This document shows, piece after piece, positions 2,087 to 55,174 of a DNA stretch of 64,000 nt. The stretch comes from an uncultured Christensenellaceae bacterium (GTDB lineage: Bacteria; Bacillota; Clostridia; Christensenellales; UBA3700): NCBI GenBank assembly GCA_910588545.1, contig CAJUOU010000003.1:54248-118247 (forward strand). The letters are read 5' to 3'. The position numbers and the translations under genes are program-made. The notes beneath the pieces are model-generated. The model had not been told where the DNA came from. It was given only the letters and a program-made list of their open reading frames with translations, and did not search any database. Every line of letters begins with the position of its first letter. Within the stretch, counting starts at the first letter, position 1.

Positions 2087-2098
2087 TTTCTACCTCCG

Positions 2099-5000
2099 TT
2101 ACTCTTTATCGTCATTACCGATACCGATGTCAAACAAATCGCCTGCATTTATATCGTTATTTGACTCACTTGCAATATCAAACAATTCCCCGGCGTTGAT
2201 ACCGTCATCGCCTGTAGGATTGTCATTGATACTGAAACCTAACAAATCGTCATCTTCAAATGAGAAATCATCCATATTGTAAGAATTATCATTGTCTATA
2301 CCGAAAATATCAAGTTCACTGTTACCGCCACCTATAATATCAATCTCTTTAAGCTCTTTTGGCTCTACATAAGGAGTATTCATGCCTTTAGAGCTGTAAG
2401 TATCGATACTGATTTCGTCGCCATTATCGTTAAGTGTACGAACATCCAAACACAATGAGCGGAACTCTCTTACCAATACCTTGAATGCCTCTGGAATACC
2501 CGGCTCGCAAATAGCATTGCCCTTAACAATAGAGTTGTAAATATTTGTACGTCCCTCTACGTCATCCGATTTAACAGTCAAAATCTCTTGCAAGATATGT
2601 GATGCACCATAAGCTTCCAATGCCCAAATTTCCATCTCACCGAATCTTTGACCACCGAACTGAGCTTTACCGCCAAGTGGTTGTTGAGTTACTAGTGAGT
2701 ATGAGCCTGTAGCTCTTGCGTGAATCTTATCGTCAACCAAGTGGATAAGTTTCAACATGTACATATAACCTACTGTTACAGGGTTTTCAAACGCTTCGCC
2801 TGTTCTTCCGTCAAACAACTTGATTTTACCGCTAGGGCTTAAATTGTTCTCGATGAATAGTTTTTTGATATCATCCTCGGATGCACCATCAAATACAGGA
2901 GTTTCTACTTTCCAATTCAACATTTTTGCAACATAGCCCAAGTGAACTTCAAGCACCTGTCCGATATTCATACGTGAAGGCACGCCCAATGGGTTAAGCA
3001 CGATTTGAAGTGGTGTACCGTCTTCCATAAATGGCATATCTTCCTTTGGAAGAACTCTTGAAACAACACCCTTGTTTCCGTGACGACCTGCCATCTTATC
3101 GCCTACGCCAAGTTTACGTTTTTGAGCAACATAAACTACAACTTTCATATTTACACCAGGAGAAAGCTCGTCCTTATTAGCTCTTGTAAATACTTTTACG
3201 TCAACAACAATACCTTTTTGTCCGTGAGGCAATCTTAATGATGTATCTCTTACATCCCTTACCTTTTCGCCGAACATTGCTCTTAGCAATCTATCCTCCG
3301 GTGTAAGGTCTGTTTCTCCCTTAGGAGTAACTTTACCGACCAAAATGTCTTCACTTGAAACTGTGCTACCGATTTGAATAATACCGTCCTCGTCAAGGTT
3401 TTTAATCATATCGTCGCTCAAGTTAGGAATATCGCGAGTAATTTGTTCTGCACCCAATTTACTGTCACGAGACTCGATTTCGTATTCTTCGATATGAACG
3501 GATGTAAACACATCGTCCTTTACCAAATCTTCACTGATAAGTATTGCGTCCTCGTAGTTATAACCCTCCCAAGACATGAAACCGATAAGAATATTCTTAC
3601 CAAGTGCAAGTTCGCCTTGTGAAGTTGCAGGACCGTCTGCGATTATCTCGCCTTTATTTACTTTTTGTCCCAACGAAACAATAGGTCTTTGGTTAATGCA
3701 AGTACCTTGGTTTGACCTTTCAAACTTACGCATATAGTACTCTTTTCTGCCACCGTCATCATTGGTTATGACAACTTTTTCGCCGTCTACATAAGTAACT
3801 GTACCATCAATTTCAGACAAAATACATACGCCGCTGTCATAAGCGATTCTATGTTCGATACCTGTTGCAATGATAGGAGCTTCTGTTTTGATTAGAGGAA
3901 CTGCCTGACGTTGCATGTTCGAGCCCATTAGTGCACGGGATGTATCGTCGTTCTCAAGGAACGGAATAAGTGATGCAGCAACCGAAACCAACTGCTTAGG
4001 GCTAACGTCCATATAGTCAACACGGCTTGCATCCACTTCGCGAATATCTTCACGGATACGGCAAGTAACACGCTTATTTTTAAAGCTACCGTCCTCGTTA
4101 AGTTCCACGTTTGCTTGTGCAACAACATATTTATCCTCTTCGTCAGCTTGCAAGTACTCAACACAATCCGTAACTATACCATTAGCTTTATCAACCTTAC
4201 GGTAAGGTGCTTCAATAAAACCATATTTGTTTACTTTTGCATAAGTTGCAAGTGAGGAAATAAGTCCGATATTTTGACCTTCAGGAGTCTCAATAGGACA
4301 CATTCTACCATAGTGAGAGTGGTGAACGTCACGAACTTCAAAGCCTGCACACTCTCTGTTCAAACCGCCAGGTCCCAAAGCCGACAGCTTTCTTTTATGA
4401 GTAAGCTCTGCGATTGGATTGTGATGGTCCATGAATTGTGACAACTGTGAAGAACAGAAAAATTCTTTAATTACACTTGTTACGGGTTTGATATTGATAT
4501 AAGATTGTGCGGTTTGCTCATTGTCGTCTTGAGTAACGCTCATTCTTTCCTTGATAACTTTTTCAAGTCTTACCAAACCTACACGCATTTGATTTTGCAA
4601 CAACTCGCCTACCGCTCTTACTCTTCTGTTTGCCAAGTGGTCGATATTATCGATTTCGCCAAAGCCGGAAGCGTGAGCCAAGTTGATATTCATAGTTGCA
4701 ATAATATCATCCATTGTGATATGTTTTACAACTAATTCCTTTGCATTTTCCTTAATAGCGTTGATAAGTGCTTCCCCGCTGTAGTCTTGCATCATTTGCT
4801 TTAATACAGGGTAGTAAACTCTTTCGTTAATACCAAGCTCTTCAGCATTACAATCAACAAACGCATTGATATCAACAGTGTTGTTACCAATCATTTTGAA
4901 AACGCCGCCGTCTCCGTTTGCATTGTATAGCAATACTTCGTTAATACCTGCGTTTTGAATATTCAATGCCACTTCTTCGGAAATTACCTCTCCTTTAGTT

Positions 5001-5920
5001 ACAAAAATCTCGCCGTCCTCGCTAACGATATCGCTTGCAGCAGTTTGATTTGCAATACGAGTTGCAATGGATAATTTTTTATTGAATTTATATCTTCCGA
5101 CTCTTTGAGTATCGTACCTCTTACTGTCAAAGAACATATTGTTAATCAATTCGGTAACGCCGTCAATAGTAGGAACTTCTCCGCTCTTCAATTTTTTGAA
5201 AAGCTCTATTTTAGCATCGTCCACATTGCGTGCAATATCTTTTTCGATAGTATCTTTAAGCATTTGATTGTCACCGAACAACTCAAAAATTTGTTCGTCG
5301 GTTCCAAATCCCAAAGCTCTTATAAATGTAGTTGCCGGCAATTTTCTTTTTCTGTCAACCACAACATATAAAATATTGTTGGAATCTTGTTTAAACTCAA
5401 GCCAAGCACCTCTGTTAGGAATAACAGTTGTATCAAAACGGTCAATACCATTCCTATCCTTTTGTGCTGTTGTGTAAACACCCGGGCTTCTTACAAGCTG
5501 CGAAACAATAACACGCTCCGCACCATTGATAATGAAAGAACCGCTGTCAGTCATCAACGGAAACTCGCCCATAAATACTTCGTTATCAATAGCTATAGGC
5601 TCGCCGTCCGCATTCTTTTTAATTAACCTGACTTTAACTTTCAAAGGTACTGCGTAAGTAGTATCTCTATCTTTACACTCCTTTACGGAATACTTTGGAT
5701 TCATATCCAAATAGTAATCCAAAAATTGAAGTTCCATTCTGCCCGCATGGTCTTTAACAGGCGAAAAATCTTGCAAAACTTCGCCAATTCCTTTCTCCAA
5801 GAAATTTTTGTAAGAGTCCTTTTGCAAAGCGATAAAATATGGTATATCGATAGTCTCTTTTATGTTGCTGAAAGAAACTCTTTCTGTCTTGCCATATTTA
5901 ACTTTGTGAATATTTGACAT
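2099..5920 (-). CDS. rpoB: DNA-directed RNA polymerase subunit beta, with an extra acidic C-terminal tail
   Basis: 1273-aa ORF with typical beta-subunit blocks ([50 protein letters not shown]). Stop lies 12 nt before the rpoC start. Confidence 0.97.
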
Positions 5921-6250
5921 ATTGCACTCTCCTTCCTAAAAAACTTTTAATGCCTGAAATACTTGCGCATACACCGACATTATAATACCTTACCATTGTA
6001 CAATAATTAATTTTTTAAGTCAAATATTTTAATTATTTATTTGATATTTATTTAATAAGATTTTACAAGCTGCGAAAACTATCGGTTTTATGACAAAAAA
6101 GCTAAATATTTCTATTAAAAAGGCAAGGATATTTTACCTAAATTTTTCATTGTAATTTTTTGGTAATTGATATTTAGCCATAATTATTCTTTTATTAAAC
6201 TTGTATTTATTGAACAAAGCCAACAAAAATTGCATTTTTCACAAAAACCA

Positions 6251-6279
6251 TTGACTTCCCAACATTTTGGGAATATAAT
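6251..6279 (+). promoter_or_regulatory. Sigma-A type promoter TTGACT-17-TATAAT with an embedded operator-like inverted repeat
   Basis: TTGACT at 6251-6256 and TATAAT at 6274-6279. The spacer is filled by TTCCCAA-CATT-TTGGGAA (6256-6273), the same half-sites seen at 7145-7221. Confidence 0.6.
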
Positions 6280-6438
6280 TAAATTACGATAATTAAATTA
6301 GCTTTAAGCTTAAATTTACCATTGCATTTCAATAAACTTGCATTAAAGTTATTAACTACTTGATTAAGTTTTGCAATAAACATGCTCAACCATGATTTGC
6401 AACGTATTTATTAAAAAGATAATTATTAGGAGAATAAA

Positions 6439-9619: not shown

Positions 9620-10036
9620 TTATCTTTTGCAATCAAGGTACTGTTGCAAAATAATGGTTGCAGCGATTTTATCGATTACGCCTTTGCGTTTTTCTCTTCG
9701 CACACCTGCTTCGATAAGCATTCTCTCGCCCGTTACGGTAGTAAGTCTTTCGTCCTGAAATGAAATTTTGACATTCGGGATTAATTGCTGCAATTTATCC
9801 GCAAATTCCCTTGTCCTTAGCACTCTGTCCCCCTCCGTACCATCCATATTGATAGGAAGCCCAAAAACAATCTCGTCCACCGCATTGGGTTTTACAAGTC
9901 CTGCAATATACTGCAAATCTTTTTCTTCGGAAACACGTTTGTAGGTCTCGTAACCATTTGCGATTATTTTCATAATATCGCTCATAGCTATTCCTATCCT
10001 TGCATCTCCGAAGTCCAAAGCCATTACTCTATTCAT
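9620..10036 (-). CDS. ruvX: Holliday junction resolvase-like / pre-16S rRNA nuclease RuvX (YqgF)
   Basis: MALDFGDARIGIAMSD...GLPINMDGTEG...DERLTT motifs. Start placed at MNRVMALDFG (ATG 10036), which has AGGAGA 5 nt upstream. Confidence 0.9.
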   Translation of the reverse strand: MNRVMALDFGDARIGIAMSDIMKIIANGYETYKRVSEEKDLQYIAGLVKPNAVDEIVFGLPINMDGTEGDRVLRTREFADKLQQLIPNVKISFQDERLTTVTGERMLIEAGVRREKRKGVIDKIAATIILQQYLDCKR

Positions 10037-32681: not shown

Positions 32682-33032
32682 TGGTGGAACTGACGGGAGT
32701 TGAACCCGTGTCCAAACGGGGATTGACTATGCTTTCTTCGTGCGCAGTGCAAATTTTGAATTTTTCGCGATGTCGCCTTTTGCACAAGCTACATTTTGAT
32801 GAGGTGTTAATTTATCTTATTGCTCCACACCAAAAGCAATAAGACCTTCCTATCTAAATGATGCCACTTACCTATCCGATAGGTCTATAGGGGTGACAAG
32901 CTCGCTAATTAAGCAGCGAAAGCTAATTGATTATTATTTTTTGCGTTTATATTTAACGTTCGTTTTTACGTAGTCGAACCTACGGCACGCTTACACAATC
33001 TCACACCCACTTGTCGAATCCGTAACAGCCCC
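32682..33032 (-). ncRNA. ssrA: tmRNA (SsrA)
   Basis: 5' GGGGCTGTTACGGATTCGACAAG... and 3' ...GGACACGGGTTCAACTCCCGTCAGTTCCACCA (T-arm, acceptor, CCA). Tag reading frame GCA AAA AAT AAT AAT CAA TTA GCT TTC GCT GCT TAA (32909-32944) gives AKNNNQLAFAA. Confidence 0.93.
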
Positions 33033-43034: not shown

Positions 43035-43990
43035 GCGAATTACACAATAAAGAAATGCGTCAAGTTTACGTTGACAATTTGATTAAATACTCTAAACTCG
43101 ACAGAAGAATTGTCGTGCTTGAGGCAGACCTTATGAACTGCATAGGTACAGGCAAGTTTAAGGAAGCTTTTCCAAGACGTTTTATTAACTGCGGAATTGC
43201 GGAAAGTAATATGATAGGTGTGGCAGCAGGTCTTGCAAGTTGCGGCAAATTGCCTTTCTGCTCTTCTTTTACTCCGTTTGCTACAAGAAGATGCTATGAC
43301 CAAATCGCAGTTAGCGTTGGATATACAAAACAAAATGTAAAAATAGTAGGAACAGACCCCGGCATTATGGCTCAAATAAACGGCGGCACACACATGAGCT
43401 TTGAGGACGTTGCTCTTATGACTCAAGTACCCGATATGATTGTTGTTGAGCCTTGCGATTGCGTTTGCCTTGACAAACTATTCCCTCAAATTTTAAAATG
43501 TGATAAACCGATGTATATTAGATTGCAAAGGAAAAAGACTCCTCCAATCTATGACGAAAAAGCTAAAATCGACCTTTTTAAAGCTAATACTGTTGTGGAC
43601 GGAGATAGCCTTACCATCATAGCTTGTGGCATTATGGTACACCGTGCTATAGCGGCATCAATGACTTTGAAAAACCAAGGTATTAATGCAAGGGTTATTG
43701 CACTTCACACTTACAAGCCTTTGGATAGTGAAACAATACTTAATGCTTGTCGCGAAACAGGTGCGGTAGTAGTTTGCGAAAACCATCACTTGATAGGCGG
43801 CTTGGGCTCTGAAGTTGCTGCACTGCTTATGCAAAATGATGTGCTTATCCCTATGACTAGGGTTGGTATCGGTGACAGATACGGCGAAGTCGGCAAAGAA
43901 GCTTACCTTGCGGAAGTTATGCACCTAACCGAGCAAGACATTGTGGAAAAAGCGCAAGAAGCTTACAAAAGAAAACTTTCAAATATGTAA
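43031..43990 (+). CDS. tkt: Transketolase, C-terminal (pyrimidine-binding) subunit
   Basis: FINCGIAESNMIGVAAGLA motif. ATGA start/stop overlap with the N subunit and a GGAGG RBS. Confidence 0.92.
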   Translation: MSELHNKEMRQVYVDNLIKYSKLDRRIVVLEADLMNCIGTGKFKEAFPRRFINCGIAESNMIGVAAGLASCGKLPFCSSFTPFATRRCYDQIAVSVGYTKQNVKIVGTDPGIMAQINGGTHMSFEDVALMTQVPDMIVVEPCDCVCLDKLFPQILKCDKPMYIRLQRKKTPPIYDEKAKIDLFKANTVVDGDSLTIIACGIMVHRAIAASMTLKNQGINARVIALHTYKPLDSETILNACRETGAVVVCENHHLIGGLGSEVAALLMQNDVLIPMTRVGIGDRYGEVGKEAYLAEVMHLTEQDIVEKAQEAYKRKLSNM

Positions 43991-44062
43991 TTATAAAAAA
44001 ACAAAAACTACTGAATAAGCTCAGTAGTTTTTGTTTTTACCCCCGATTTTCAATTAATTTTT
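43934..44062 (+). repeat. Left copy of island-flanking direct repeat (authentic tkt 3' end + terminator + ACCCCCGATTTTCAATTAATTTTT)
   Basis: Aligns with 53937-54064. I counted 11 mismatches in the 57-nt coding part and about 6 differences in the 72-nt non-coding part. Confidence 0.85.
44002..44038 (+). terminator. tkt terminator
   Basis: 13-bp stem CAAAAACTACTGA/TCAGTAGTTTTTG followed by TTTTT. Confidence 0.85.
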
Positions 44063-44170
44063 GTCAAAAATTATCTTTTTATTTTAAAACAAATTCATTT
44101 AAACACTTAAATAATTAAAGAGTTTTAATGGCGTTTTATCAATTAAATAGCAAGTGAAAATGTATCATGT

Positions 44171-44214
44171 ATAAAAACCTCTAGTTAAAAATATTTTTAA
44201 CTAGAGGTTTTGTC
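44171..44214. terminator. Terminator after the island ABC gene
   Basis: 17-bp perfect palindrome AACCTCTAGTTAAAAAT/ATTTTTAACTAGAGGTT with flanking A/T runs. Confidence 0.7.
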
Positions 44215-44235: not shown

Positions 44236-46755
44236 TTACTCTTTAGTTTTTTGAAATGCTTTGCGAAGATTTTTGTCGCTTATTCTACAAATGTTGAAAG
44301 TCAGTGCCAATACAGCAGTGGCTACAGCAATAAATATTGCAATAATTATAGATACTGGTATCAATGGCAATTTAACAATTAATGTCTGACCAATTATAGT
44401 AGTCATAAGAAAATTAAACAAGAATATTACTCCTATACCAACCCCAATACCAATAATTAGTTCAATTAAAAGTTGTATTATTGTGAATATTCCATAGATT
44501 TTGAAATAATCTAATTTTTTTGCACCAAGTGACTTAAGTATAAGCAAATCGTTTGCCTTTGATGTTATAATAATACCAATAGAATTATATATAAGTACTC
44601 CTACAACAGCTGCAAGTATAATACTTGCCACAATGAAAACATAATTACCAATCATTCGCATTTCAGCATATTCACTTGTTATTAGTATGCCATCATCAAT
44701 AATAAAATCTAACATTGATTGATAATAGTTATCATAACTTTTCCCACCATATAGTTTCTTTGCTTGTGCATTTAATTGTTTAAGTCCGCCTGCACTTAAA
44801 CTATCCATATTGAAAATGATTTTATTTAATTGTGATTTTTCATATCCACCCATCATCATTTTATAATCTTCTTCATTATACAAAATTCCTAAATTATTTA
44901 TATCATTTAATCGAGCATCAATTTTAACTTTAAACTTTATGTTCATTCGGATATTTCTGTCAATGGTATATTCTCCACCTAAATCTTGAACATCACCCCT
45001 CACTAGCATAGTTGAAAGCAGTATTGCATCACCATCGTTTAAATTTTTAAACATCGCATAATGATTGTTCATTAACACAGTACCTTTTTCCACACTATCA
45101 ACACCCGTAATATGTGCAGTCAATGAATTAGCAGGTGCTACACCAATGTTATTGTATTTTGCATTCTCTGTTGTCATTAAGGTATGTACATATTGCCCTT
45201 GATTACTTTTAACTTTTCCAGGGCTTTCAATATACATTGTAGCATCCCACACATCACTCCAAGCAGTTGAAACAATTACCGATTGTGCCAAAATCTTATC
45301 TATAACATAAGAATATGCCTCTTGCTCATCCTCACTTTCAAACTCGCTTATTGGTTTTGCAAATTTTTCTGGAACAACAACGCCATCATCAAATACACCA
45401 ACAATTTTAATGCCATAAAAGTTATGTTCAAAGATATTCTCTACTGCAACAAATTTATTAGTATCTTTGTCACGATAACCACCTACAGCATTAAAATATA
45501 TTAATTTACTTTTAGGAATAGCTATTTCTCCTAATTTCTCAGGTTGTCTTCCTTTTATAAGAGAAATACCTAGGCTTTCTAAGTCATTTGTCACTATATA
45601 TTTATCTATAAATGCATATCCGTATGCCACATCTTGCAAATTAAGCATTTTTTCATTTATATCATAAGTCAGAGTGCCAGTAAACTCAGTATCAATACCA
45701 AAAATATCTGTTACATTGGTATATACCTTTGCACTATTTATCCCCTTTTTATCTTTAAGATATTTACTTATTTCAGTCAAATCATTATGCGTTGTCGCAG
45801 TAAAAGTACCATTACCAATTACTCTAGATACTTTTTCATACTTTGAGTATTCAGATATAACCATATTACTTACATTTCTCTTGTCGTAAGTAGCACGAAC
45901 CATAGTTTCGTAATCAATCGATGCCCAATTACAGCAGAACATAAGCATCATAAGTAGAATAGTTGTCATAACCATAAAAGCAATTCGTCTGCCTACCTTT
46001 GCTTTATTAAAAGCAATCGCTACTGACATAGATGTTTTAAAACTTAAACCAACTTTTTTAGCCTTTTGCACGCCGATATTCTGTGGTTTTTCTACATTTT
46101 TACAAACGGCTAACTCAGTAAGTTCTTTATCTTCTACAATTACGCCATCTTGCAATCTTAACATTCGATTAGCATAATTTTTTATAGTTTCAACATCATG
46201 CGTAACAACAATTATTAGAATATCTTTTGCTAATTCTTGAAGTAAACCAAAGATATTTTTGCTGTTTTTGCTGTCAAGATTGCCTGTAGGCTCATCTGCA
46301 AAAATAATTTTTGGCTTTTGTACTAATGCTCTTGCTATAGCAACTCTTTGTTTTTGTCCACCAGACAAACTAAGTACTTTTTCATTTTTACACTCAAAAA
46401 TGCCAAGTTTATCTAGCAAAGCGTCAATTTGCTCTATACTATAGTCACTAGCAACCAATTCCTTTGCAACCAAAATATTGTCAATAACACTAAGGTTTTC
46501 AATTAATTTATAATCTTGATATATTGTAGCAAAAGTTGACTTAATCTCTCTAGGATTGCACTTTTCTCCAAAAATAAAGATTTCGCCATCACTTTTTTCA
46601 TCAATGCCCGACAAAACATTTAGCAAAGTAGACTTTCCACAACCACTACTTCCTACAACTGCTATCATACCATAATTAGGAGTGTCAAAAGACACTCCTC
46701 TTAAGGCTTCAACTCCATTTTCGTAAGTTTTTGTTAAATTTTCAACTTTTAACAT
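44236..46755 (-). CDS. Fused ABC ATPase / FtsX-MacB-type permease (839 aa)
   Basis: N-terminal NBD ([30 protein letters not shown]). A TM helix follows, then a ~400-aa extracytoplasmic region and a C-terminal FtsX-like 3-TM bundle. AAGGAGG RBS. Confidence 0.85.
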
Positions 46756-46952
46756 AAAACCTCCTTAATTAATATAAATTTTAATTTTGGAGTAAAACTA
46801 TATAACTAGCAGTCCTCATCATAAGTATTTTAACATAGTTTTACTCGTTTTTCAATATGAAAAATCAAATTAATTTTTCAATGTTCGCATTTTTTGTTGC
46901 TACACTCTTTAAAAACTTTCTCTTATCACCTCCTTAAGATATTACATTTTCC

Positions 46953-47032
46953 CCCTTCTACTTTATATACGAATAACTTGGCAATTTTTATTCAAAAAAA
47001 AGAAGAATTTTTGAAAATCTCAAAAATTCTTC
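46953..47032 (-). promoter_or_regulatory. Repeated module: 13-bp-stem terminator plus TGAATA-N17-CGTATA promoter (copy upstream of the ABC gene)
   Basis: Hairpin GAAGAATTTTTGA-aaatc-TCAAAAATTCTTC (47002-47032) plus a U-run. -35 TGAATA is the complement of 46989-46994 and -10 CGTATA the complement of 46966-46971. About 78 bp are near-identical to 51655-51736. Confidence 0.6.
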
Positions 47033-47071
47033 ATGTACATTGTTTTAATTAGTCTACACCATTATAATTAT

Positions 47072-50000
47072 TCAATTTAAAAACATATCAAAAAATTCAT
47101 TTGAGTAAGCAGAAGGCAAATCTACTATAGAATCTTCAACTTGATGTTGTCCTGCAACTGGTTTACTTACTTGATCACCTACAGGTCCCACAGAAGTGGT
47201 GCCATCACGACCATATTCACCATTTTTACCATCGCTGCCATTGTTTCCTATAATTCCAGCATTTCCTCCTTTACCACCAGTACCTTTGTGACCAATATTG
47301 CCATTTTTACCATTGATACCACCATCAGTAGTTAAAGTTTCAACATTAGTTCCTTGAGCAGCACTTCCTGCAACTCCATTGGTTCCACCATTGCCACCTT
47401 TACCACCATCACCAGGGTCACCTGTTCCAGTAAACCAATCTCCACTAACATCATCAGCACCTTTGCCGCCATTACCACCATTGCCGCCATTGCCACCGTT
47501 TCCACCGTCGCCACCTTTAATATAATAATTAGAACCACGAGCAACATTAATTATATTATTTGATGCATAAATAGCATATCCGCCATTACCACCGTTTCCA
47601 CCAGCAGATCCATCTTTTCCTGGAGCGCCATCATCACCCTTTATAGGTTTAAAAATACTACCTCTTGGAGGTCTTTCACCATCTTTACCATTTTCACCAT
47701 TATAGCCGCTACTACCATTTCCGCCATTACCACCATAGATATAAACTTTAGAATCAGAATTAAAAGCCATTAATGTAACTTCCTTAGCTTTAATTCCATA
47801 ACCGCCATTAGCACCAGCTACACCATTACCACTTCCATCAGCTCCATTTCCGCCTTTAATGGTAACTGAACCAAAGTAAGTTAAATAAATTGCTGAACTT
47901 TCACAATCAATAGCATTAACTGCACCTCCAGTTGGTGCTTTTATATCAATATTTTTCAAGCCAAATAGAATTGCACCATTTCTGTTTAAAACATTAATTT
48001 TTGCAGTTATTGTCATATATCCATTGCCAATAAATGTTATCATTTTTACAGAAGAGTTTATATTTATAGTATACTTCATACTACTTGAAGCATTAGAAAA
48101 ATCTACTATAGCAACTCTATCAGTGATAGACAAATTCTCACTTGCTGTAATAACTCTTCCTTCCCATTCTACTACTAATTCAATATCTTTAAATATTTCT
48201 TTTGTATTTTCAAAACTATTACCATTATAACTCCATTTTACAAATAAATAACCAAATTTTTGTGGAGTAGCAAGTTCTGTGTTAAACACTGGATTGTCTA
48301 CTGTAAATTCATTTGGCAAATCAAACACAACATCGGCATACCTAAAATTATATGTAATATTATATTTAATTAAATCATATTGAGGGTATAATGTGTTGCT
48401 ATCAATTTGATCTTCCCATACCCATGTTTTTCTTGCATCAATGATAAGATTTCCACCTATTGGTTTATCAAACCAACCTTTAAATATCTTACCTTCTATT
48501 TCTGGAATTGCTATATCCAATGTTTGTCCATATTCAATAAATACTTCTTGTCCCCCATTATCACCGATAATAATTTGATATTTTGATGTTTCATATTTTG
48601 CTAATAGACTAATATCGTCATAAAAATCAATCATATCATTAACATTCAATCTTGTTCCATTATATTCCCAACCACAAAAATCTTTACCAGTTATTACTGG
48701 AGCAACAATATAGTTATCAAACTTAGACCCATAATACTCTGTCCTACTGCCAATAAAATTATTATTTATATCATAAAAATTGATTGTTAATTCTTTTGCT
48801 TTTAATGTATTAGTCAAATTAACAAAACAGATATTCTCTTGATATTCCTGCAATCTAGCTTCTTTTACATACAATATAACTTTATCATCAAAACAATCCC
48901 CATCTAAAACTGGTGGAATATCAGAAGTAAATATTATGCTTTCTAAATCTGTTGCACCTTTAAATGCTGAAACTCCTATAGAATCAATTTTATCAGACAA
49001 TATAATTTGAGTAGGGACATTGTTATCAAAACAATCTCTTCCTATTCTATGTATATTATCTGGAATTTTTACAATTCTTTCTGTTCCAAAATACTTTAAC
49101 AAAACTTTTCCTAAAATTACAAATTTACTTGCATTATTTGAATACCAAGGGGTATCTAACAAAGCGGTAATATCACAATCAATAATATTATTTGCATTAT
49201 TAATATATGCCAATGAACTATTTGTGAATGTTTCAGGTCCAATAAACTCTACTTGATTTAAATTAATAGTTCTAATATTTTTGTTGTTTTTAAATAATCT
49301 AGCATTTAAAATTGTTACTTTATCAGGAATTGTTATTTCAGAAACTACAGGATTTGCATATATTGCCACTTTTTTATCTGTATCTGTAACATTACATTTA
49401 ATTAAAATATTATCTTGCCAAACATAATTTGCATTGCTTTTAAAATTAGTAATCATAGTGCCTAAAAAAGCATCATCTTCAATACTATTAACACCATAAG
49501 GTATGATAAAATCAGTTATTGCTGTATTTGCAAAAGCACATTTAGTTATGATATTAAGAGAGGTATTAGCACTTAAATTTACATTGTTCAAATTACTACA
49601 TCCTGCAAATGCTCTTTCGCCCAAATTGTTCAAATATGGCAAATTGATAGAAGTTAATCCTAAACAATTTTCAAAAGCTGAATTGCCAATATTTTTCAAC
49701 TTATCCATAGCACTTCCTATATTAATACTTGAACAATTATAAAATGCTTCTGCGCCAACATTTTGTAAATTACCTAAGTCATCTAATGCTTCCAATTTAG
49801 TACAATTTTTAAAAGCATAATCTCCAATGTGTGTTACATTGTTCAAATTAGTTATAGATTTTAAATTAGTACAATTTTCAAAAGTTCCTATACCTATATT
49901 TTTAATGTTTTTGGATAAAGCCAAATTTTCAATACTATTATTAGCAAATACATAATCACCTAATTCAGTAACATTTTTTTCATAAATTGTATCAGGAATA

Positions 50001-50782
50001 GTTGTTATACCTTTTGCTTCGGGAATAAGTAATCTATTAATTTTTATTTCATTATTATTAATTTCCACTGCTTCGTATAGAAATTGCGGTCTTAATCCTA
50101 TAACATTTGATTCTATTAATATGTCATATTCTGCCTCTCCTTGTGGTGAATCATTAAAAATTTGCACACAATCACCTTGTGAAACATGTTGAATGATTTT
50201 TTTTGCAATTTCTTGATCACTTAAATCTAAATATTCAAGTCCATATTTTCGCCCTTTCTCATTATTAAATAAATCCATTTCTTTATCAACACCTTGCGAA
50301 TCATCTCCACTTTCATGTGCATCTGCATAAGTTTTAGCATCATCAACTCCCACATATTTAACCATTAATGCATTCCAATATGTATGTCTAAAAGCATCCC
50401 CATTATCCTTATAAAGACTTCCATCATAATAATATAGTGCTTCAGCTTTTGCTAACTTACTACACTCATATATTTGCAATGCAGCGCCTGGTTTTGTAAA
50501 TATAAATGTTTTTTCATCAGGCGAAAGATCTCCATAAAAATCATGAAATTTATCATATAAAGATTTTTCATCTTCAGTTTCATTATTATCTGTTTCATCA
50601 TTAATAGATTGCCTCTCTATTTGATTTACACTCAATTCACTAAACTTTGCTTTGTTGATATTAGCAAATTGCATAGTTTTTCCTATTAAAATTGTCCAAC
50701 TAAATATTGCAATAATCAAAATTGTTGGAATCAATAAAAACTTAAAAAGTTTTGAATTTTTAATTCTTTTATGTTTATCCAT
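47072..50782 (-). CDS. Giant surface protein: TM anchor, DUF6973-like domain, BspA-type LRRs, Listeria-Bacteroides repeats, Gly-rich/collagen-like C-terminus
   Basis: GDAFRHTYWNALM...DAHE...MDLFNNEKGRKYG block. More than 10 repeats of the IGxxAFxNCxxLxxI type. FCGWEYNG and FKGWFDKPIGG repeats. 14 uninterrupted G-X-Y triplets (GINGKNGNIGHKG...GRDGTT). Confidence 0.8.
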   Translation of the reverse strand: MDKHKRIKNSKLFKFLLIPTILIIAIFSWTILIGKTMQFANINKAKFSELSVNQIERQSINDETDNNETEDEKSLYDKFHDFYGDLSPDEKTFIFTKPGAALQIYECSKLAKAEALYYYDGSLYKDNGDAFRHTYWNALMVKYVGVDDAKTYADAHESGDDSQGVDKEMDLFNNEKGRKYGLEYLDLSDQEIAKKIIQHVSQGDCVQIFNDSPQGEAEYDILIESNVIGLRPQFLYEAVEINNNEIKINRLLIPEAKGITTIPDTIYEKNVTELGDYVFANNSIENLALSKNIKNIGIGTFENCTNLKSITNLNNVTHIGDYAFKNCTKLEALDDLGNLQNVGAEAFYNCSSINIGSAMDKLKNIGNSAFENCLGLTSINLPYLNNLGERAFAGCSNLNNVNLSANTSLNIITKCAFANTAITDFIIPYGVNSIEDDAFLGTMITNFKSNANYVWQDNILIKCNVTDTDKKVAIYANPVVSEITIPDKVTILNARLFKNNKNIRTINLNQVEFIGPETFTNSSLAYINNANNIIDCDITALLDTPWYSNNASKFVILGKVLLKYFGTERIVKIPDNIHRIGRDCFDNNVPTQIILSDKIDSIGVSAFKGATDLESIIFTSDIPPVLDGDCFDDKVILYVKEARLQEYQENICFVNLTNTLKAKELTINFYDINNNFIGSRTEYYGSKFDNYIVAPVITGKDFCGWEYNGTRLNVNDMIDFYDDISLLAKYETSKYQIIIGDNGGQEVFIEYGQTLDIAIPEIEGKIFKGWFDKPIGGNLIIDARKTWVWEDQIDSNTLYPQYDLIKYNITYNFRYADVVFDLPNEFTVDNPVFNTELATPQKFGYLFVKWSYNGNSFENTKEIFKDIELVVEWEGRVITASENLSITDRVAIVDFSNASSSMKYTININSSVKMITFIGNGYMTITAKINVLNRNGAILFGLKNIDIKAPTGGAVNAIDCESSAIYLTYFGSVTIKGGNGADGSGNGVAGANGGYGIKAKEVTLMAFNSDSKVYIYGGNGGNGSSGYNGENGKDGERPPRGSIFKPIKGDDGAPGKDGSAGGNGGNGGYAIYASNNIINVARGSNYYIKGGDGGNGGNGGNGGNGGKGADDVSGDWFTGTGDPGDGGKGGNGGTNGVAGSAAQGTNVETLTTDGGINGKNGNIGHKGTGGKGGNAGIIGNNGSDGKNGEYGRDGTTSVGPVGDQVSKPVAGQHQVEDSIVDLPSAYSNEFFDMFLN

Positions 50783-50792
50783 ATTTTATCTC

Positions 50793-51479
50793 CTATTTTG
50801 TTTCATTCTGCTTAAAATGAAAAATTAAATCTTCATTCCAACGAACTTCCAATAATTCATCTTTATAAAAATAAATTATTTGTTTTTTATCTGTTGTTTC
50901 ACTATTTAATATATTAATCTTACCATCTTCATCTTGGCTAAAGTCATATTTAACTCCACCAAACTCTACACCACCATCAACAATAAGCTCTATTGATATT
51001 TCGTTATTTGCCAATAAATCTTCTTCTACCAAATTATATGTGCCTTTGGGTATTCCATAATTTTCTAAAATCTTCAGTTTATCTTTCTTATAACGTAAAA
51101 TTACATGTGGATAATGGACTTCCAATATGTTTTTTTCATAAAAATATTTAATTAGTATTCTTTTTTCTACAGGTACATTTTTATTACCTAGACATACTTG
51201 TCCATCTTCGCCTTGATAAATATCAGATGAATAAGTATCAATGTAATTTTCAATAAATTCAATATCATTATCAATATAAATCACATCAAAAATGGCTTCG
51301 GCACTATCTATGTCTTCATCAATCAAACTATAATATCCAGTAGGAATACCAAATAATGACTCATTAGATGGTTTTCTTAAATAAACATCTATAAAAGCAC
51401 ACCCTGACAAAAGCATACTCATTGTCACAAGTAACAAAGATATAATTATTGGAACTATAACTATTTTTGTTTTTTTCAT
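50793..51479 (-). CDS. Lipoprotein with an internal tandem ~90-aa duplication
   Basis: Start at MKKTKIVIV (ATG 51479, GAGGAG RBS) and lipobox LLSGC. The two halves align (IPTGYYSLIDED...ILEVHYPHVILRYKK versus IPKGTYNLVEED...LLEVRWNEDLIFHFK). Confidence 0.65.
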   Translation of the reverse strand: MKKTKIVIVPIIISLLLVTMSMLLSGCAFIDVYLRKPSNESLFGIPTGYYSLIDEDIDSAEAIFDVIYIDNDIEFIENYIDTYSSDIYQGEDGQVCLGNKNVPVEKRILIKYFYEKNILEVHYPHVILRYKKDKLKILENYGIPKGTYNLVEEDLLANNEISIELIVDGGVEFGGVKYDFSQDEDGKINILNSETTDKKQIIYFYKDELLEVRWNEDLIFHFKQNETK

Positions 51480-51654
51480 CTTATTTCTCCTCATTTTTGC
51501 TAAGTTATAATTATTAAATAAATTATAACTCAAATATTTAAGTTGCTGCAAATTATTTTTTTTAATTTTCTATGTTTTCATATCCATCACTATCTCCTTT
51601 AAATAAAATATTTTATTTTTCTATTGAATAATTTTTATTGCTTAATAAATCACT

Positions 51655-51736
51655 TCCCTTTCTACTTTATATACGAATAACTTGGCAATTTTTATTCAAA
51701 AAAAAGAAGAATTTTTGAAAATCTCAAAAATTCTTC
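51655..51736 (-). promoter_or_regulatory. Repeated module: terminator plus TGAATA-N17-CGTATA promoter (copy upstream of the lipoprotein and giant-protein genes)
   Basis: Hairpin at 51706-51736. -35 is the complement of 51693-51698 and -10 the complement of 51670-51675. Confidence 0.6.
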
Positions 51737-51761
51737 TTTTTTCGTGATGTTTTAGCCGTTT

Positions 51762-52448
51762 TTATGCTAGTAATTTACTAATCTCTTCTTGCCAATCTGT
51801 TTCTCCTTCCAAATCAAAACAAATTCTGTACACATGACCTTTATAGCTAAATTTAGTAAAAGATTTATATAAATATATTTCTTCATCAAACTTTGTATTA
51901 TAATTTATTTTAACACCATTAATTATAATTTCACTAGATAGTGATTCATAGTTAGACAAAAATTCAAAAATATAATTATCTTTTAGTTCCACAAATAATT
52001 TAATTTGTTCATAAGTATCAAGCAAAATCACATCTTGACTCAATAAAACATCTTTTTCTCCATCCTTATAAATTTTAACCCTTTCTTCGATATTTTTATA
52101 ATTTTTAAAATACAACAAATCCAAATTTCTATCTTCATTATATTTTTCAACTGAACCATATTTATAAATATTATTTTCGGAATATGAATAATGAATTGGT
52201 GGCTCTAATGGATTGTTTGGTTTTGATAAAATTATACCAAGAAAAATACCAAAACTAATTATAATAAGCAAACAACAAATTGTTGCCGTAATGATTAATT
52301 GCTGTTTTCTATTATCAACTGCTTTTACTTCGCAGGCGTCATTCCAATGAGTTTCTTCCTTTGCTTTGTGCAAAATTTCATAGTTTATCTCTTGTTTATT
52401 GTCATCTTGCTTTTCCATAAGTTTTGCTAACTTTCTTTTTGTAAACAT
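51762..52448 (-). CDS. Single-pass membrane protein (possible anti-sigma/signalling partner)
   Basis: Start at MFTKRKL (ATG 52448, GGAG upstream, 1 nt after the upstream stop). One central TM helix (LIITATICCLLIIISFGIFLGIIL). No zf-HC2 motif. Confidence 0.55.
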   Translation of the reverse strand: MFTKRKLAKLMEKQDDNKQEINYEILHKAKEETHWNDACEVKAVDNRKQQLIITATICCLLIIISFGIFLGIILSKPNNPLEPPIHYSYSENNIYKYGSVEKYNEDRNLDLLYFKNYKNIEERVKIYKDGEKDVLLSQDVILLDTYEQIKLFVELKDNYIFEFLSNYESLSSEIIINGVKINYNTKFDEEIYLYKSFTKFSYKGHVYRICFDLEGETDWQEEISKLLA

Positions 52449-52449
52449 T

Positions 52450-53301
52450 TTAATATATCTCCACTCCAACAATATCATTAACTGCAGTTGTTCCCTCTAA
52501 CCATATATAGCCGGTAGGAAAATGTTCTAGTCCACTACTGACACTTAAATATGTATCCGTCCTAATTACGTTATTACCATTATAGTACCTAACTTTTTTT
52601 ATGCCATTTGCAATAAGTATATGATTAGCATTATACTCAGTGGTTGTCATAGTTAGGTTTGTATCCCCTATTTCCAAATTTGTTACTAAATTTGACATTG
52701 TAATAAACAATGCAACAGGTTTGCCATTTTTAAAACTATTAGCTATTGCATCATAATCAATCTTGCTACCTTGCCCATAGCCCCTATACGTTATATTATA
52801 TCCTTTATCAACCACATATTCATTCAAACCATTTTTAAATTGCTCTTCTGTTGCACCTGCTCCCGTTGTGTTAACTTTCATACGAAAATACAAGTCATTC
52901 ATAAGGTTTTGTATGTTTGAATCGATTGGCTTATAAACAATATTTCCACCTCTTTTTAAAAAAGAACTAAAATTCGGTATTATATTTTCCAATGTAATAT
53001 CATAATAACCAACAATAATTCCGCCTGCAACTGCTGCACAACCATTTTTCAATACAGAATCAGCATCATAATAATTTGGTGTCTTTGGCGACATTGTTGT
53101 ATCTATAAGCACTTCTTTTCTTGTATAATTCAAAGTCTCATTTCTAGTAGAAAATAAAGATGGTCGAATCTCTGAGTTATAATATATTTCTCCTGCTTCT
53201 TCTGCAAAAACTTCTAATGGCATAAATGTAAAACCCATTACAAAAGCAATCATAATTGCTACAATACTTAATGTTACTACATATAATTTTTTTGTGTTCA
53301 T
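52450..53301 (-). CDS. Secreted papain-fold cysteine peptidase-like protein (C10/C39-like)
   Basis: Signal peptide. Candidate catalytic Cys in KNGCAAVAGGIIVGYYD and His in NANHILIANG. This is recognition-level only. Confidence 0.45.
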   Translation of the reverse strand: MNTKKLYVVTLSIVAIMIAFVMGFTFMPLEVFAEEAGEIYYNSEIRPSLFSTRNETLNYTRKEVLIDTTMSPKTPNYYDADSVLKNGCAAVAGGIIVGYYDITLENIIPNFSSFLKRGGNIVYKPIDSNIQNLMNDLYFRMKVNTTGAGATEEQFKNGLNEYVVDKGYNITYRGYGQGSKIDYDAIANSFKNGKPVALFITMSNLVTNLEIGDTNLTMTTTEYNANHILIANGIKKVRYYNGNNVIRTDTYLSVSSGLEHFPTGYIWLEGTTAVNDIVGVEIY

Positions 53302-53319
53302 ATCCTAGCCTCCACTATA

Positions 53320-53348
53320 TATACGAACAACTTTGCAATTTTTATTCA
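53320..53348 (-). promoter_or_regulatory. Third copy of the TGAATA-N17-CGTATA promoter motif (upstream of the peptidase gene)
   Basis: -35 is the complement of 53343-53348 and overlaps the sigma gene stop codon. -10 is the complement of 53320-53325. GGAGG at 53309-53313 and ATG at 53301 leave an unusually short leader. Confidence 0.45.
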
Positions 53349-53870
53349 ATTTTGATAAAAATTTTTCATTTTTTTATAAATTCGTGTTCTTTGCGTATAT
53401 ATTGTAGCTATAGGGACATTATCCATTTCTGCTATTTCTTTAATTGTATATCCTTCCCAAAACATACGATATAACAATTCTTTTTCTTTATCATTTAGTA
53501 TTGACATTAATTCTTCAACAATTAGTGTTTTTAACGGCTGAAAACTTTTGTCTTCAATTTCATAATAACTATTACTTATATATTCTACTTTTATATCCTT
53601 TTTGTTTTCATCTATTGCTAAATTTTTTATGATTGTATACATCCAATTATATCCATTCTTTTTTATATCGAATCTACTTGCTTTCAACAAAATTTTTTTA
53701 TATAGTTCAAGCAAAACATCTTCAACACTATTCTTATTCTTCAAATAGTATTTTGCAATGCTTTCCATATTTTTATATGTATATTCAAACAATTTATCAA
53801 AAGCATGCTCATTTCCATTTGCAACCTGCTTGATATAATGATTTATTTTTTTATAATCTAATTGTTTCAA
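53346..53870 (-). CDS. Sigma-70 family (ECF-like, regions 2 and 4 only) RNA polymerase sigma factor
   Basis: Region 2-like AFDKLFEYTYKNMESIAKYYL...VEDVLLELYKKIL. Region 4 HTH LLYRMFWEGYTIKEIAEMDNVPIATIYTQRTRIYKKM. TTG start. Confidence 0.8.
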   Translation of the reverse strand: MKQLDYKKINHYIKQVANGNEHAFDKLFEYTYKNMESIAKYYLKNKNSVEDVLLELYKKILLKASRFDIKKNGYNWMYTIIKNLAIDENKKDIKVEYISNSYYEIEDKSFQPLKTLIVEELMSILNDKEKELLYRMFWEGYTIKEIAEMDNVPIATIYTQRTRIYKKMKNFYQN

Positions 53871-53910
53871 AAAATCTTATCCTTTGCCAAAGGCTATTAA
53901 ATATAAAAAT

Positions 53911-53939
53911 ATTATATCTTACTTGCCACAGTATGTCAA
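53911..53939 (-). promoter_or_regulatory. Consensus sigma-A promoter of the island sigma gene
   Basis: On the minus strand TTGACA (53934-53939)-17-TATAAT (53911-53916). It lies on the antisense strand of the tkt relic. Confidence 0.6.
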
Positions 53940-53993
53940 GATTTTGTTAAAAAAGCACAAGAAACTTACAACAGGAAACTTGAAAATATATAA
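53913..53993 (+). pseudogene. Relic 3' end of a second, diverged transketolase C-subunit gene
   Basis: 53937-53993 translates to QDFVKKAQETYNRKLENI-stop, against QDIVEKAQEAYKRKLSNM-stop for the real tkt end (43934-43990). Weaker similarity continues ~8 codons further upstream, and a stop at 53904-53906 closes the frame. Confidence 0.7.
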
Positions 53994-54064
53994 TTATAAA
54001 AAATAAAAACTACTGATTTAAACTCAGTAGTTTTTGTTTTACCCCCGATTTTCAATTAATTTTT
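53937..54064 (+). repeat. Right copy of island-flanking direct repeat (relic tkt end + second terminator copy + ACCCCCGATTTTCAATTAATTTTT)
   Basis: Same stem AAAAACTACTGA/TCAGTAGTTTTT as 44002-44038 with a different loop. Confidence 0.85.
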
Positions 54065-54160
54065 TTAAAACGCCTTTTAAATTTAAAATCATTTAAATAA
54101 CTTCTTTCATAGGTGTTGTTTTATTTTAGAGCATTGTAACTTTTAAGTTGCATTTAAAAA

Positions 54161-54401
54161 CTAATCAATGTCTAATGTTTCAATATCAAAAAGTGGGCTA
54201 TCAAAAAACTCGCTAACAGACATTTCTAAAGCTGTAAAATTGTAATTAAAGTTGTTAAATTTACACTTTTATATCTATTATAAATTAATGATGTAAAAGT
54301 ACCTTTTATAAGCCTGAAGATAATTGTAATTTATACAAAGAAATCCCCTTTTCTGCGACAATTTCTATAATTCTTTCACTTACTGCTTTTGCTATTGTCA
54401 T
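54161..54401 (-). pseudogene. Decayed XRE-family HTH gene (two compensating frameshifts)
   Basis: GGAG plus ATG at 54401. Reads MTIAKAVSERIIEIVAEKGISLYKLQLSSG, then the next frame gives LIKGTFTSLIYNRYKSVNLTTLITILQ, then the original frame gives ALEMSVSEFFDSPLFDIETLDID-stop. Confidence 0.6.
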
Positions 54402-54480: not shown

Positions 54481-54984
54481 TTATTTGTTAAGCATTGTAT
54501 CAATAGTTAAATATTTTAGTAGCAATTTTGCCATAAACTCATTGCTCTCGTTCATTCCACTTTCAACCCATCTATAAATTACTGCTAATATACCATTATT
54601 TATAAATGTTGTATCATATTCATCTACTTCAAAATTTGTGTACAAATATTGGTGGCTTAAACGCAATAATTCTTCATCTAAATTCATTTTATGCATAAGC
54701 ACAAATGCTTCGCTATTTACCCTAAAATATTCAAACAACTTTACAAAATTTTCAAACTCGTAACCAAGCTCCAAATTTAAACTACTGTGCCAATTTATAA
54801 TCAAATTATTTACTTTTTGTATTACAATATCTTCCTTAGATGAAAAATGTCTATAAAAAGTACTACGGTTATAGCCGGCCTTTTTGCATATTTGTTTGAT
54901 ATTTATCTCATTAATGTCACAGGAATTGCTTAAAGAAATCAAAGCATCGTAAAAACACTCCTGAGAAAAATTTTTTGTTGACAT
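54481..54984 (-). CDS. TetR/AcrR-family transcriptional regulator
   Basis: N-terminal HTH INIKQICKKAGYNRSTFYRHFSSKEDI. Divergent from 55175-57579. Confidence 0.85.
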   Translation of the reverse strand: MSTKNFSQECFYDALISLSNSCDINEINIKQICKKAGYNRSTFYRHFSSKEDIVIQKVNNLIINWHSSLNLELGYEFENFVKLFEYFRVNSEAFVLMHKMNLDEELLRLSHQYLYTNFEVDEYDTTFINNGILAVIYRWVESGMNESNEFMAKLLLKYLTIDTMLNK

Positions 54985-55174
54985 TAGCAACACACTCCCT
55001 TTATTTGTCGCAAAATATAACCAGCAAATGTATTTTTATAAATTGTACTATTGACTAAAAAAGTAATTTTATGATATTATTTACTCATAGGTATTTAGTT
55101 TTATTATAATTATTATATCATTTTTATAGCTAAATGTCAAAAATAACAAGTAAAATTTTTGCAAAGGAGAAATC

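Follow-up and report, generated by a model that had tools for sequence, protein, structure and literature searches.

Introduction

The systems that are closest to the one considered here are built around sigma factors of the extracytoplasmic function (ECF) type. In Bacillus subtilis, SigW and the ECF sigma factors M, X and V are small proteins that have regions 2 and 4 only, and the ECF promoters of this bacterium consist of a tgaAAC element followed by a homopolymeric tract, with CGTA as the second element for sigma-W (PMC5758882). In ECF modules in general, the sigma gene is encoded together with its targets and a single-pass membrane protein, and the promoter copies are close to the consensus (PMC7826278, PMC7776599); approximately half of the ECF sigma factors are not autoregulated (PMC7776599). 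C. difficile 630 has eight sigma factors that are associated with conjugative transposons, have no known consensus and are presumed to transcribe the genes of their own element (PMC7438776). Both the ECF regulons of the SigW type and the island- or transposon-borne sigma factors of Clostridia are already known. In this study, which was based on a 64-kb stretch of DNA from an uncultured Christensenellaceae bacterium (contig CAJUOU010000003.1; the whole stretch of 64,000 nucleotides is called the window below) and on its comparison with related loci (given L numbers), we describe a 10-kb island that encodes a 174-aa ECF-type sigma factor and carries three copies of the motif TGAATA-N17-CGTATA. 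The motif is probably the cognate promoter of the island sigma factor. An initial annotation of the window had already regarded the two as a matched pair, and this was supported by their conserved co-occurrence in unrelated contexts down to a sigma identity of 48%.

The motif and its conservation

As had been reported initially, exact copies of TGAATA-N17-CGTATA are present on the minus strand at 46966-46994, 51670-51698 and 53320-53348, one before each island unit other than the sigma gene itself. Extended to 41 nt, these are copy 1 (TGAATAAAAATTGCCAAGTTATTCGTATATAAAGTAGAAGG, 46954..46994), copy 2 (TGAATAAAAATTGCCAAGTTATTCGTATATAAAGTAGAAAG, 51658..51698) and copy 3 (TGAATAAAAATTGCAAAGTTGTTCGTATATATAGTGGAGGC, 53308..53348), which overlaps the stop codon of the sigma gene and holds the ribosome-binding site of the next gene. 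The TGA stop codon (53348-53346) also makes up the first half of the -35 hexamer of copy 3. When up to one mismatch was allowed, five sites were found in the window, while 100 shuffles gave 0.66 on average and never reached five; because the three copies form a repeat family and are not independent chance events, the significance of the motif rests on its conservation across species and not on the shuffle test.

An identical sigma protein is present on many gut-metagenome contigs, and homologues of 48-80% identity were located, with the contig of one relative being labelled as mouse gut. The motif was compared in 13 instances from loci whose sigma factors are 48-100% identical, using the mean pairwise identity per segment. 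Two blocks proved to be conserved, block 1 (TGAATAAAAATTGC, positions 1-14) at 89% and block 2 (TATATAWAGT, positions 26-35) at 91%, while the identity was 44% in the spacer (positions 15-23), 39% in the CG of CGTATA (positions 24-25) and 51% in the purine-rich tail (positions 36-41). The element is therefore bipartite: block 1 comprises the -35 hexamer and an A-tract, the spacer has approximately 9-11 nt, and block 2 has the form (C/T/A/G)(G/C/A)TATATAWAGT, after which a purine-rich segment resembling a Shine-Dalgarno (SD) sequence follows. In every lineage that was examined down to 48% sigma identity, a recognisable copy is attached to the sigma gene, and in all of the lineages examined the orientation of the motif is that of the genes. 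Copy 3, whose position had been described as odd, turned out to be the most widely conserved form of the motif, as the same arrangement was found in L007, L011, L018, L020, L021, L023 and L026. The overlapped stop codon is TGA in the window and TAA, in a different frame, in L011; an overlap in two reading frames means that the conservation is at the DNA level rather than a consequence of coding.

In 11 of the 13 instances, the predicted 5' end has an SD-like purine run (GGAGG, GAAGG or AAGGG) close by, at a distance of a few bases, and these include units in which the start codon comes 150-250 nt further on. In its position near the predicted 5' end, the purine run is similar to STAB-SD, the 5' mRNA stabiliser of B. 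thuringiensis cry3A (PMC4113751), the resemblance being one of sequence only. It may be speculated that in the units with long leaders the purine run is a stabiliser of this kind. Directly after copy 1, an SD-like GGGGG is followed by a start-stop pair, ATG-TAA (46947-46942), within 46942-46955 of the minus strand.

The contexts in which the sigma gene and the motif occur together have little else in common. In the window species they lie beside tkt, in L007 and L018 beside an LRR_5 gene and tsaE/tsaD, in L021 beside a Polysacc_synt_2 gene, in L055 beside nrdD and an agr-like operon, and in L011 beside the conjugation-type genes PcfJ, MutS_I and a methylase. The only constant neighbour of the motif across these unrelated contexts is the sigma gene. 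In L055-L060, whose sigma factors are 48% identical to that of the window, the motif (TGAGTAAAAATAGCG...ACTATATATAGT) is upstream of the sigma gene, i.e., in the classical autoregulatory position of ECF systems, and a second copy precedes the agr-like operon. In this lineage (e.g., L055 9244-9284, 11794-11834 and 11977-15076), the trio of genes for the sigma factor, the peptidase-like protein and the transmembrane protein adjoins the operon, which encodes a LytTR regulator, a histidine kinase, AgrB and a 48-aa peptide. In L011, the neighbours of the sigma module at 1204-6375 (DUF4326, MutS_I, PcfJ and an N6 methylase) are typical of conjugative or mobile elements, which hints that the module travels on such elements.

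A copy that is unlinked to the sigma gene was also found. In uncultured Christensenella sp. MGBC128953, a unit consisting of a terminator and the motif is present on contig L027, which does not include the sigma gene, after ecfT, truA, rplM and rpsI, where it precedes a cassette of secreted-protein, permease and ABC (ATP-binding cassette) genes that is homologous to one in the island of strain L004. The two units are 90.5% identical over 95 nt, and the cargo proteins are 27-64% identical. An unlinked copy would fit a factor that acts in trans. A more distant parallel is provided by L014, at approximately 5000-5220 and 9806-9948, and by the equivalent positions of L015 and L016, where a sigma gene whose product is 39% identical is followed by two pairs of a small and a giant protein, each pair being preceded by a different shared motif (GTCGTAATTTT ... 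ACTAAACATTATGGAAGG) that ends in an SD-like purine run. The architecture is the same, with a specificity that appears to be different.

Real copies of the motif scored 29-59 bits with a position weight matrix (PWM), and no other site reached 12 bits in the scanned sigma-bearing loci and the 64-kb window. Chance matches to the pattern in unrelated genomes and viral contigs remained below 22 bits; the 13 matches in viral contigs, of which the one that was examined lies in a tail gene module, did not exceed 19.4 bits and were treated as chance. The regulon had been called self-contained, and this holds for the window and for the nearest representative genome at the level of the strict pattern, but not for the family, as is evident from the L027 and L055 copies. 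The strict pattern that was used for the genome scan has 19 fixed bases and missed the sigma-adjacent copy in L023, which has T for C at position 14, so that weak sites elsewhere in the genome could escape it.

An alternative role for the conserved 41 nt would be that of an operator bound by a repressor or activator, or of an RNA element that is transcribed, e.g., a leader motif or a processing site. Block 2 does run unusually far, through the predicted start and into the SD-like purine run, and copy 3 is certainly within the sigma mRNA, as no terminator separates the sigma and peptidase-like genes. We nevertheless regard this explanation as very improbable. The folding energies were within approximately two standard deviations of the means of mononucleotide shuffles in all eight instances tested, with no stable or shared structure among them, and Rfam found nothing in the island. 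The motif is not palindromic, and the only conserved DNA-binding neighbour is the sigma factor, while the TetR gene is confined to the window species.

The sigma factor and its own promoter

The sigma gene (53346..53870, minus strand) starts with a TTG codon that is conserved in the window, L007, L011 and L055. Its product was annotated from the beginning as a two-domain sigma factor, and Pfam found Sigma70_r2 (residues 27-88) and Sigma70_r4_2 (residues 117-168), together with Sigma70_ECF; the Pfam scan found no match to region 3, which leaves only regions 2 and 4, without region 1.1. Region 2 is conserved. With 56.7 bits, the protein exceeded the cut-off (42.9 bits) of the ECF superfamily model TIGR02937 sigma70-ECF in NCBIfam, and it passed no cut-off of a named NCBIfam equivalog, with those for SigW being missed by a wide range (43.6 vs. 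209 bits for NF007223 and 36.9 vs. 243 bits for TIGR02948). SigW of B. subtilis is, at the same time, the closest relative with a solved structure (5wuq, phmmer E 4.8e-8). The clade is narrow: an exhaustive search among 1.84 billion sequences gave two representatives at E<=1e-30 and 173 at E<=1e-10. In the collections of sequenced plasmids and phages there was no close relative, the best matches being at most 31% identical, and a phage or plasmid origin of the sigma factor was rejected. The low-GC, repeat-flanked island, the conjugation-type neighbours in L011 and the presumed targets on the same element are similar to what is known of the mobile-element sigma factors of C. difficile. Unlike those, the sigma factor of the island has no close plasmid or phage relative and no transfer or integration genes with it, and its candidate promoter can be read from the sequence.

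Upstream of the sigma gene, a promoter of the sigma-A type, TTGACA-17-TATAAT (53911..53939, minus strand), matches the consensus in 12 of 12 positions, as had been noted initially. It had also been placed within the tkt relic, which is real, but of the promoter only the -35 hexamer reaches the relic, at its inner edge, and the -10 hexamer lies outside. A perfect-consensus housekeeping promoter also precedes the homologous sigma genes in L023, L007 and L055. The region upstream of the sigma gene, where the sigma-A-type promoter stands instead, was free of the island motif in the PWM scan of the 64-kb window, and the gene appears not to be autoregulated in this genome. Since approximately half of the ECF sigma factors do not autoregulate, this absence is not disqualifying. 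What seems to be new here is a narrow, uncharacterised sigma subfamily with a candidate promoter in the sigma stop codon and, in this genome, no positive feedback.

Two observations on disrupted genes belong here. In L026 (MGBC128953), the sigma gene is frameshifted after residue 24, at approximately 6890, relative to L040 and L007, which makes it either a pseudogene or an assembly error; phase variation was considered, but the frameshift is a single G deletion outside a repeat tract and gives no evidence for slippage. In the window, a broken gene for an XRE-type helix-turn-helix protein (MTIAKAVSERIIEIVAEKGISLYKLQLSSGL, then a stop, with other frames onward) lies at approximately 54160-54400 on the minus strand, between the TetR gene (54481-54993) and the sigma promoter, and gene callers give only a 31-aa open reading frame there.

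Which holoenzyme may read the motif

Like the ECF promoters of B. subtilis, the motif is bipartite, with a -35 of the TGAA type, an A-tract at the equivalent place and, in the window copies, CGTA. The putative targets, which are envelope or exported proteins and ABC exporters, also correspond to those of the SigW-type regulons. On the other hand, TGAATA is found instead of TGAAAC, and the spacer has 17 nt, not 16. Moreover, there is no autoregulatory copy in the window genome and no recognisable anti-sigma factor of the RsiW type, and the similarity of the sigma factors is distant. The initial likening of the motif to SigW promoters was appropriate for CGTATA in the window copies but not for the family, whose conserved block is TATATAWAGT. 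The island appears to work like an ECF regulon of the SigW type, and its sigma factor is not a SigW orthologue. As in generic ECF modules, the sigma gene is encoded with its putative targets and a single-pass membrane protein, and the promoter copies are close to the consensus; unlike in those, a putative promoter lies inside the sigma stop codon, a perfect housekeeping promoter precedes the sigma gene, whose start codon is TTG, and units with the motif flank strain-variable cassettes.

It is unlikely that the promoter is read by another holoenzyme, which could be either that of the housekeeping sigma factor, with TAWAGT as the -10 and an activator on block 1, or a forespore one with SigF or SigG. 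The A2 and T6 of TAWAGT (positions 30-35) are kept in all 13 instances, but this hexamer is 23 nt from TGAATA, and AAAATT, which is 17 nt upstream of it, makes a poor -35. With an activator on block 1, moreover, the sigma-like protein of the island would have to act as that activator despite its conserved region 2. As for the forespore version, which had been raised initially as an alternative, TGAATA resembles the -35 of SigF- and SigG-type promoters, and the contig of one relative encodes Spo0A, which means that the lineage may sporulate; the cargo, however, consists of exported surface proteins and exporters, which are not typical forespore products. Both versions are disfavoured by the linkage of the motif to the island sigma gene, the sole gene that always accompanies it across unrelated contexts. 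A further reading was rejected: TACGAATA, which occurs on the plus strand of copies 1 and 2 and corresponds to the ComX box (com-box) of streptococci, is on the wrong strand for the genes and is not conserved, as the relatives have TACAAATA or TATAGT.

With the island sigma factor as the reader of the motif, the following mechanism can be proposed from the sequence. Housekeeping RNA polymerase would transcribe the sigma gene from its perfect consensus promoter, and translation would start from the conserved, weak TTG. The sigma factor would then guide the core polymerase to all three motifs, with region 4 most likely contacting block 1 and region 2 contacting block 2. Copy 3, inside the sigma stop codon, would be an internal promoter that boosts the genes for the peptidase-like and transmembrane proteins, while copies 2 and 1, behind their terminators, would drive the pair of lipoprotein and giant leucine-rich-repeat protein and the ABC-FtsX exporter as insulated units. 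With CGTATA as the -10, transcription would start near 53313, 51663 and 46959, and the transcript would begin at the conserved SD-like purine run, which would explain the near absence of a leader after copy 3; with TAWAGT as the -10, the starts would be approximately 6 nt further downstream. The transmembrane protein, possibly together with the peptidase-like protein, may restrain the sigma factor, and because the sigma factor itself would drive both genes, the result would be negative feedback without positive autoregulation.

Several points weigh against this proposal or against parts of it. The -35 of the motif is without the AAC core that is typical of ECF promoters, and the CGT core of the -10, which the window copies have, is only partly kept across the family. 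The CG is not conserved outside the closest lineages, for which reason the CGTATA register and the start site are insecure, and the conserved TAWAGT, with its A2 and T6, has the signature of a housekeeping -10 hexamer. Recent duplicates or possibly transferred units make up many of the copies, and shared descent, rather than selection, may account for part of their conservation. No anti-sigma domain could be recognised, and L007 and L010 are without both the peptidase-like and the transmembrane gene, which makes the sigma-control step speculative. Finally, a candidate sigma-A-like promoter (TTGAAA-17-TGnTAAAAT, 46827..46855, minus strand; 10 of 12 positions plus an extended -10) lies in the leader of the ABC gene and read-through is possible, so that the units could be expressed without a strict dependence on the island sigma factor; the peptidase-like and transmembrane genes can also be read from the sigma promoter, as no terminator lies between the sigma and peptidase-like genes.

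If the motif is the promoter of the island sigma factor, then the sigma factor, promoter, terminators and targets of a regulon can all be read from the sequence in an uncultured gut lineage of Clostridia, which would make it an unusually clear example. A compact pair of a sigma factor and a promoter that is distinct from the AAC/CGT type of ECF systems would, moreover, be a candidate orthogonal expression part for Firmicutes.

Terminator-motif units and the proposed exchange of cassettes

Copies 1 and 2 had been described as parts of near-identical units that also carry a terminator. This was borne out, as 46952-47032 and 51656-51736 are 99% identical across 81 nt, and in both of them a hairpin of 13-14 bp with a T-run (folding energy -13.9 kcal/mol) directly abuts the motif. 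The hairpin at 51706..51736 closes the peptidase-like/transmembrane unit, with its T-run abutting copy 2, and the one at 47002..47032, which was found by a hairpin scan and folding, closes the unit of the lipoprotein and the giant protein (both on the minus strand). Copy 3 has only a core of approximately 40 nt in common with these units. The description of the units as insulated stood as far as the terminators before copies 1 and 2 are concerned; the view that each depends separately on the sigma factor is weakened by the possible read-through and by the candidate sigma-A-like promoter of the ABC gene.

Strains of the window species have the genes for the sigma factor, the 283-aa peptidase-like protein and the 228-aa transmembrane protein in common, and their sets of genes before tkt differ. 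Between genomes that are 98-99% identical, colinearity extends exactly as far as the 3' end of the motif and is lost directly behind it: L002 diverges from L004 and L003 at 12215, the 3' end of motif copy 2, and L007 from L018 at 10581, also a motif 3' end. In L003, a single hybrid unit takes the place of copies 1 and 2 of the window, the lipoprotein/giant cassette between the repeats having been gained or lost. All of the cassette copies have a terminator hairpin before the motif, and L011 uses a different hairpin sequence. We infer that the unit of terminator and motif has two roles, as a signal for expression and as the conserved junction at which cassettes can be exchanged. In other strains, a gene for a 287-291-aa protein is found between copy 1 and the ABC gene (L001 17787-18650, L003 12416-13291); it is cleanly absent in the window (46755-46955) and L002, with an overlap of 17 nt at the junction, and the ABC gene therefore inherits its leader of approximately 200 nt.

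These observations raise the question of whether the repeats might be mainly recombination junctions or a small mobile repeat whose conservation comes from recent copying or gene conversion. The near identity of copies 1 and 2 over 81 nt, the strain differences that begin exactly at the motif and the unit that is 90.5% identical between species next to diverged cargo would all be in line with this, as would the many assembly contigs that break just after the motif. A mere junction, however, would not be expected to have two conserved blocks around a freely varying spacer, nor a strict orientation and a position upstream of genes. The terminator architecture is kept with a different hairpin sequence, a copy in the autoregulatory position is found in the 48%-identical lineage, and no recombinase is encoded in the island, all of which make it quite unlikely that the repeats are junctions in the main. 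The roles of junction and promoter are not exclusive, and the best explanation includes the junction role.

A similar layout is known from the cassette arrays of integrons, in which strain-variable cargo comes after a fixed, conserved signal for expression and a repeated unit bounds each cassette. The island differs from them in having no integrase and no folded sites resembling attC, and each of its cassettes has its own promoter and terminator. The simplest explanation of cassette exchange is ordinary homologous recombination between the 81-95-nt units, which would be the junctions where strains gain, lose and swap cassettes, and a cassette that is placed at such a unit would come under the control of the private sigma factor. 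More tentatively, the unit of approximately 80-95 nt may be a portable adaptor by which any cargo that brings a copy with it or is inserted behind one is insulated from adjacent genes and wired to a private, non-autoregulated sigma factor, and whose copies give the homology for shuffling. A terminator-promoter adaptor that bounds strain-variable cassettes and is also present at an unlinked site appears to be new. If the adaptor reading is true, gut Clostridia would have, for their variable surface structures, a cassette array that needs no integrase and is addressed by a sigma factor, in which adhesin pairs, exporters and even a quorum-sensing operon are shuffled between strains, species and chromosomal sites. 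The layout suggests that gut commensals may vary their surface by means of conserved expression adaptors before exchangeable adhesin and exporter cassettes.

Other genes of the island and its borders

The genes for the sigma factor, the peptidase-like protein and the transmembrane protein form a trio that is conserved down to 48% sigma identity. The peptidase-like gene (52450..53301, minus strand) encodes a secreted or anchored protein of 283 aa, possibly a Cys/His peptidase, in which Cys88 and His227 are invariant in 16 homologues. Its match to Peptidase_C39_2 is weak (E 0.02, 15.9 bits, below the cut-off of 24 bits), and the structural model is too weak (pLDDT 60) to show a peptidase fold, its matches to the calpain core being not significant. 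The 228-aa single-pass membrane protein (51762..52448, minus strand), a candidate regulator or anti-sigma factor whose gene is the second one downstream of the sigma gene, has its true start at MFTKRKLAKL, which is invariant in 13 homologues, and a conserved cytoplasmic N-terminus of 50 aa. In its AlphaFold2 model, a transmembrane helix (residues 56-85) is followed by a confident C-terminal extracellular beta domain, and the N-terminus is of low confidence. An assignment as an anti-sigma factor was considered, but there was no family match in Pfam or NCBIfam and no significant match in Foldseek.

The first gene of cassette 1 (50793..51479, minus strand) encodes a lipoprotein of 228 aa with the lipobox LSGC, which was recognised by reading the sequence and from the gene calls in L002, and for which no family match was found in Pfam or NCBIfam. 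It is followed by the gene for the 1236-aa surface protein (47072..50782, minus strand), which has DUF6973, BspA-type LRR_5 repeats and a Gly/Asn-rich repeat tail; its match to Flg_new is below the threshold (22 vs. 27 bits), and its match to the HupY/LrrG adhesin family of NCBIfam is partial. At 47203-47842, the C-terminal part of this protein consists of Gly/Asn-rich repeats of the GNGG type with a period of 9 nt, present in 26 overlapping copies. The last gene (44236..46755, minus strand) encodes an 839-aa fusion of an ABC ATPase with an FtsX-type permease, i.e., a MacB-like exporter (ABC_tran and FtsX in Pfam, and NCBIfam), and it is followed by a two-way terminator hairpin (44174..44211) that was found in the hairpin scan.

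The 10-kb island is bracketed by tkt repeats of approximately 150 nt and has a GC content of 28.7% compared with approximately 35% in the flanks. The left direct repeat (43934..44089, plus strand), which was found in the repeat scan, comprises the 3' end of the intact tkt gene and its terminator, and the right one, the tkt relic (53937..54088, plus strand), is 87% identical to it. The flanking repeats look like an integration scar. None of the six island proteins matched a recombinase or integrase family in Pfam or NCBIfam, and there are no transfer or integration genes in the island. Outside the island, a full-length tmRNA gene is present on the minus strand at 32682-33032 (RF00023, 173 bits) and is the sole Rfam match in the window.

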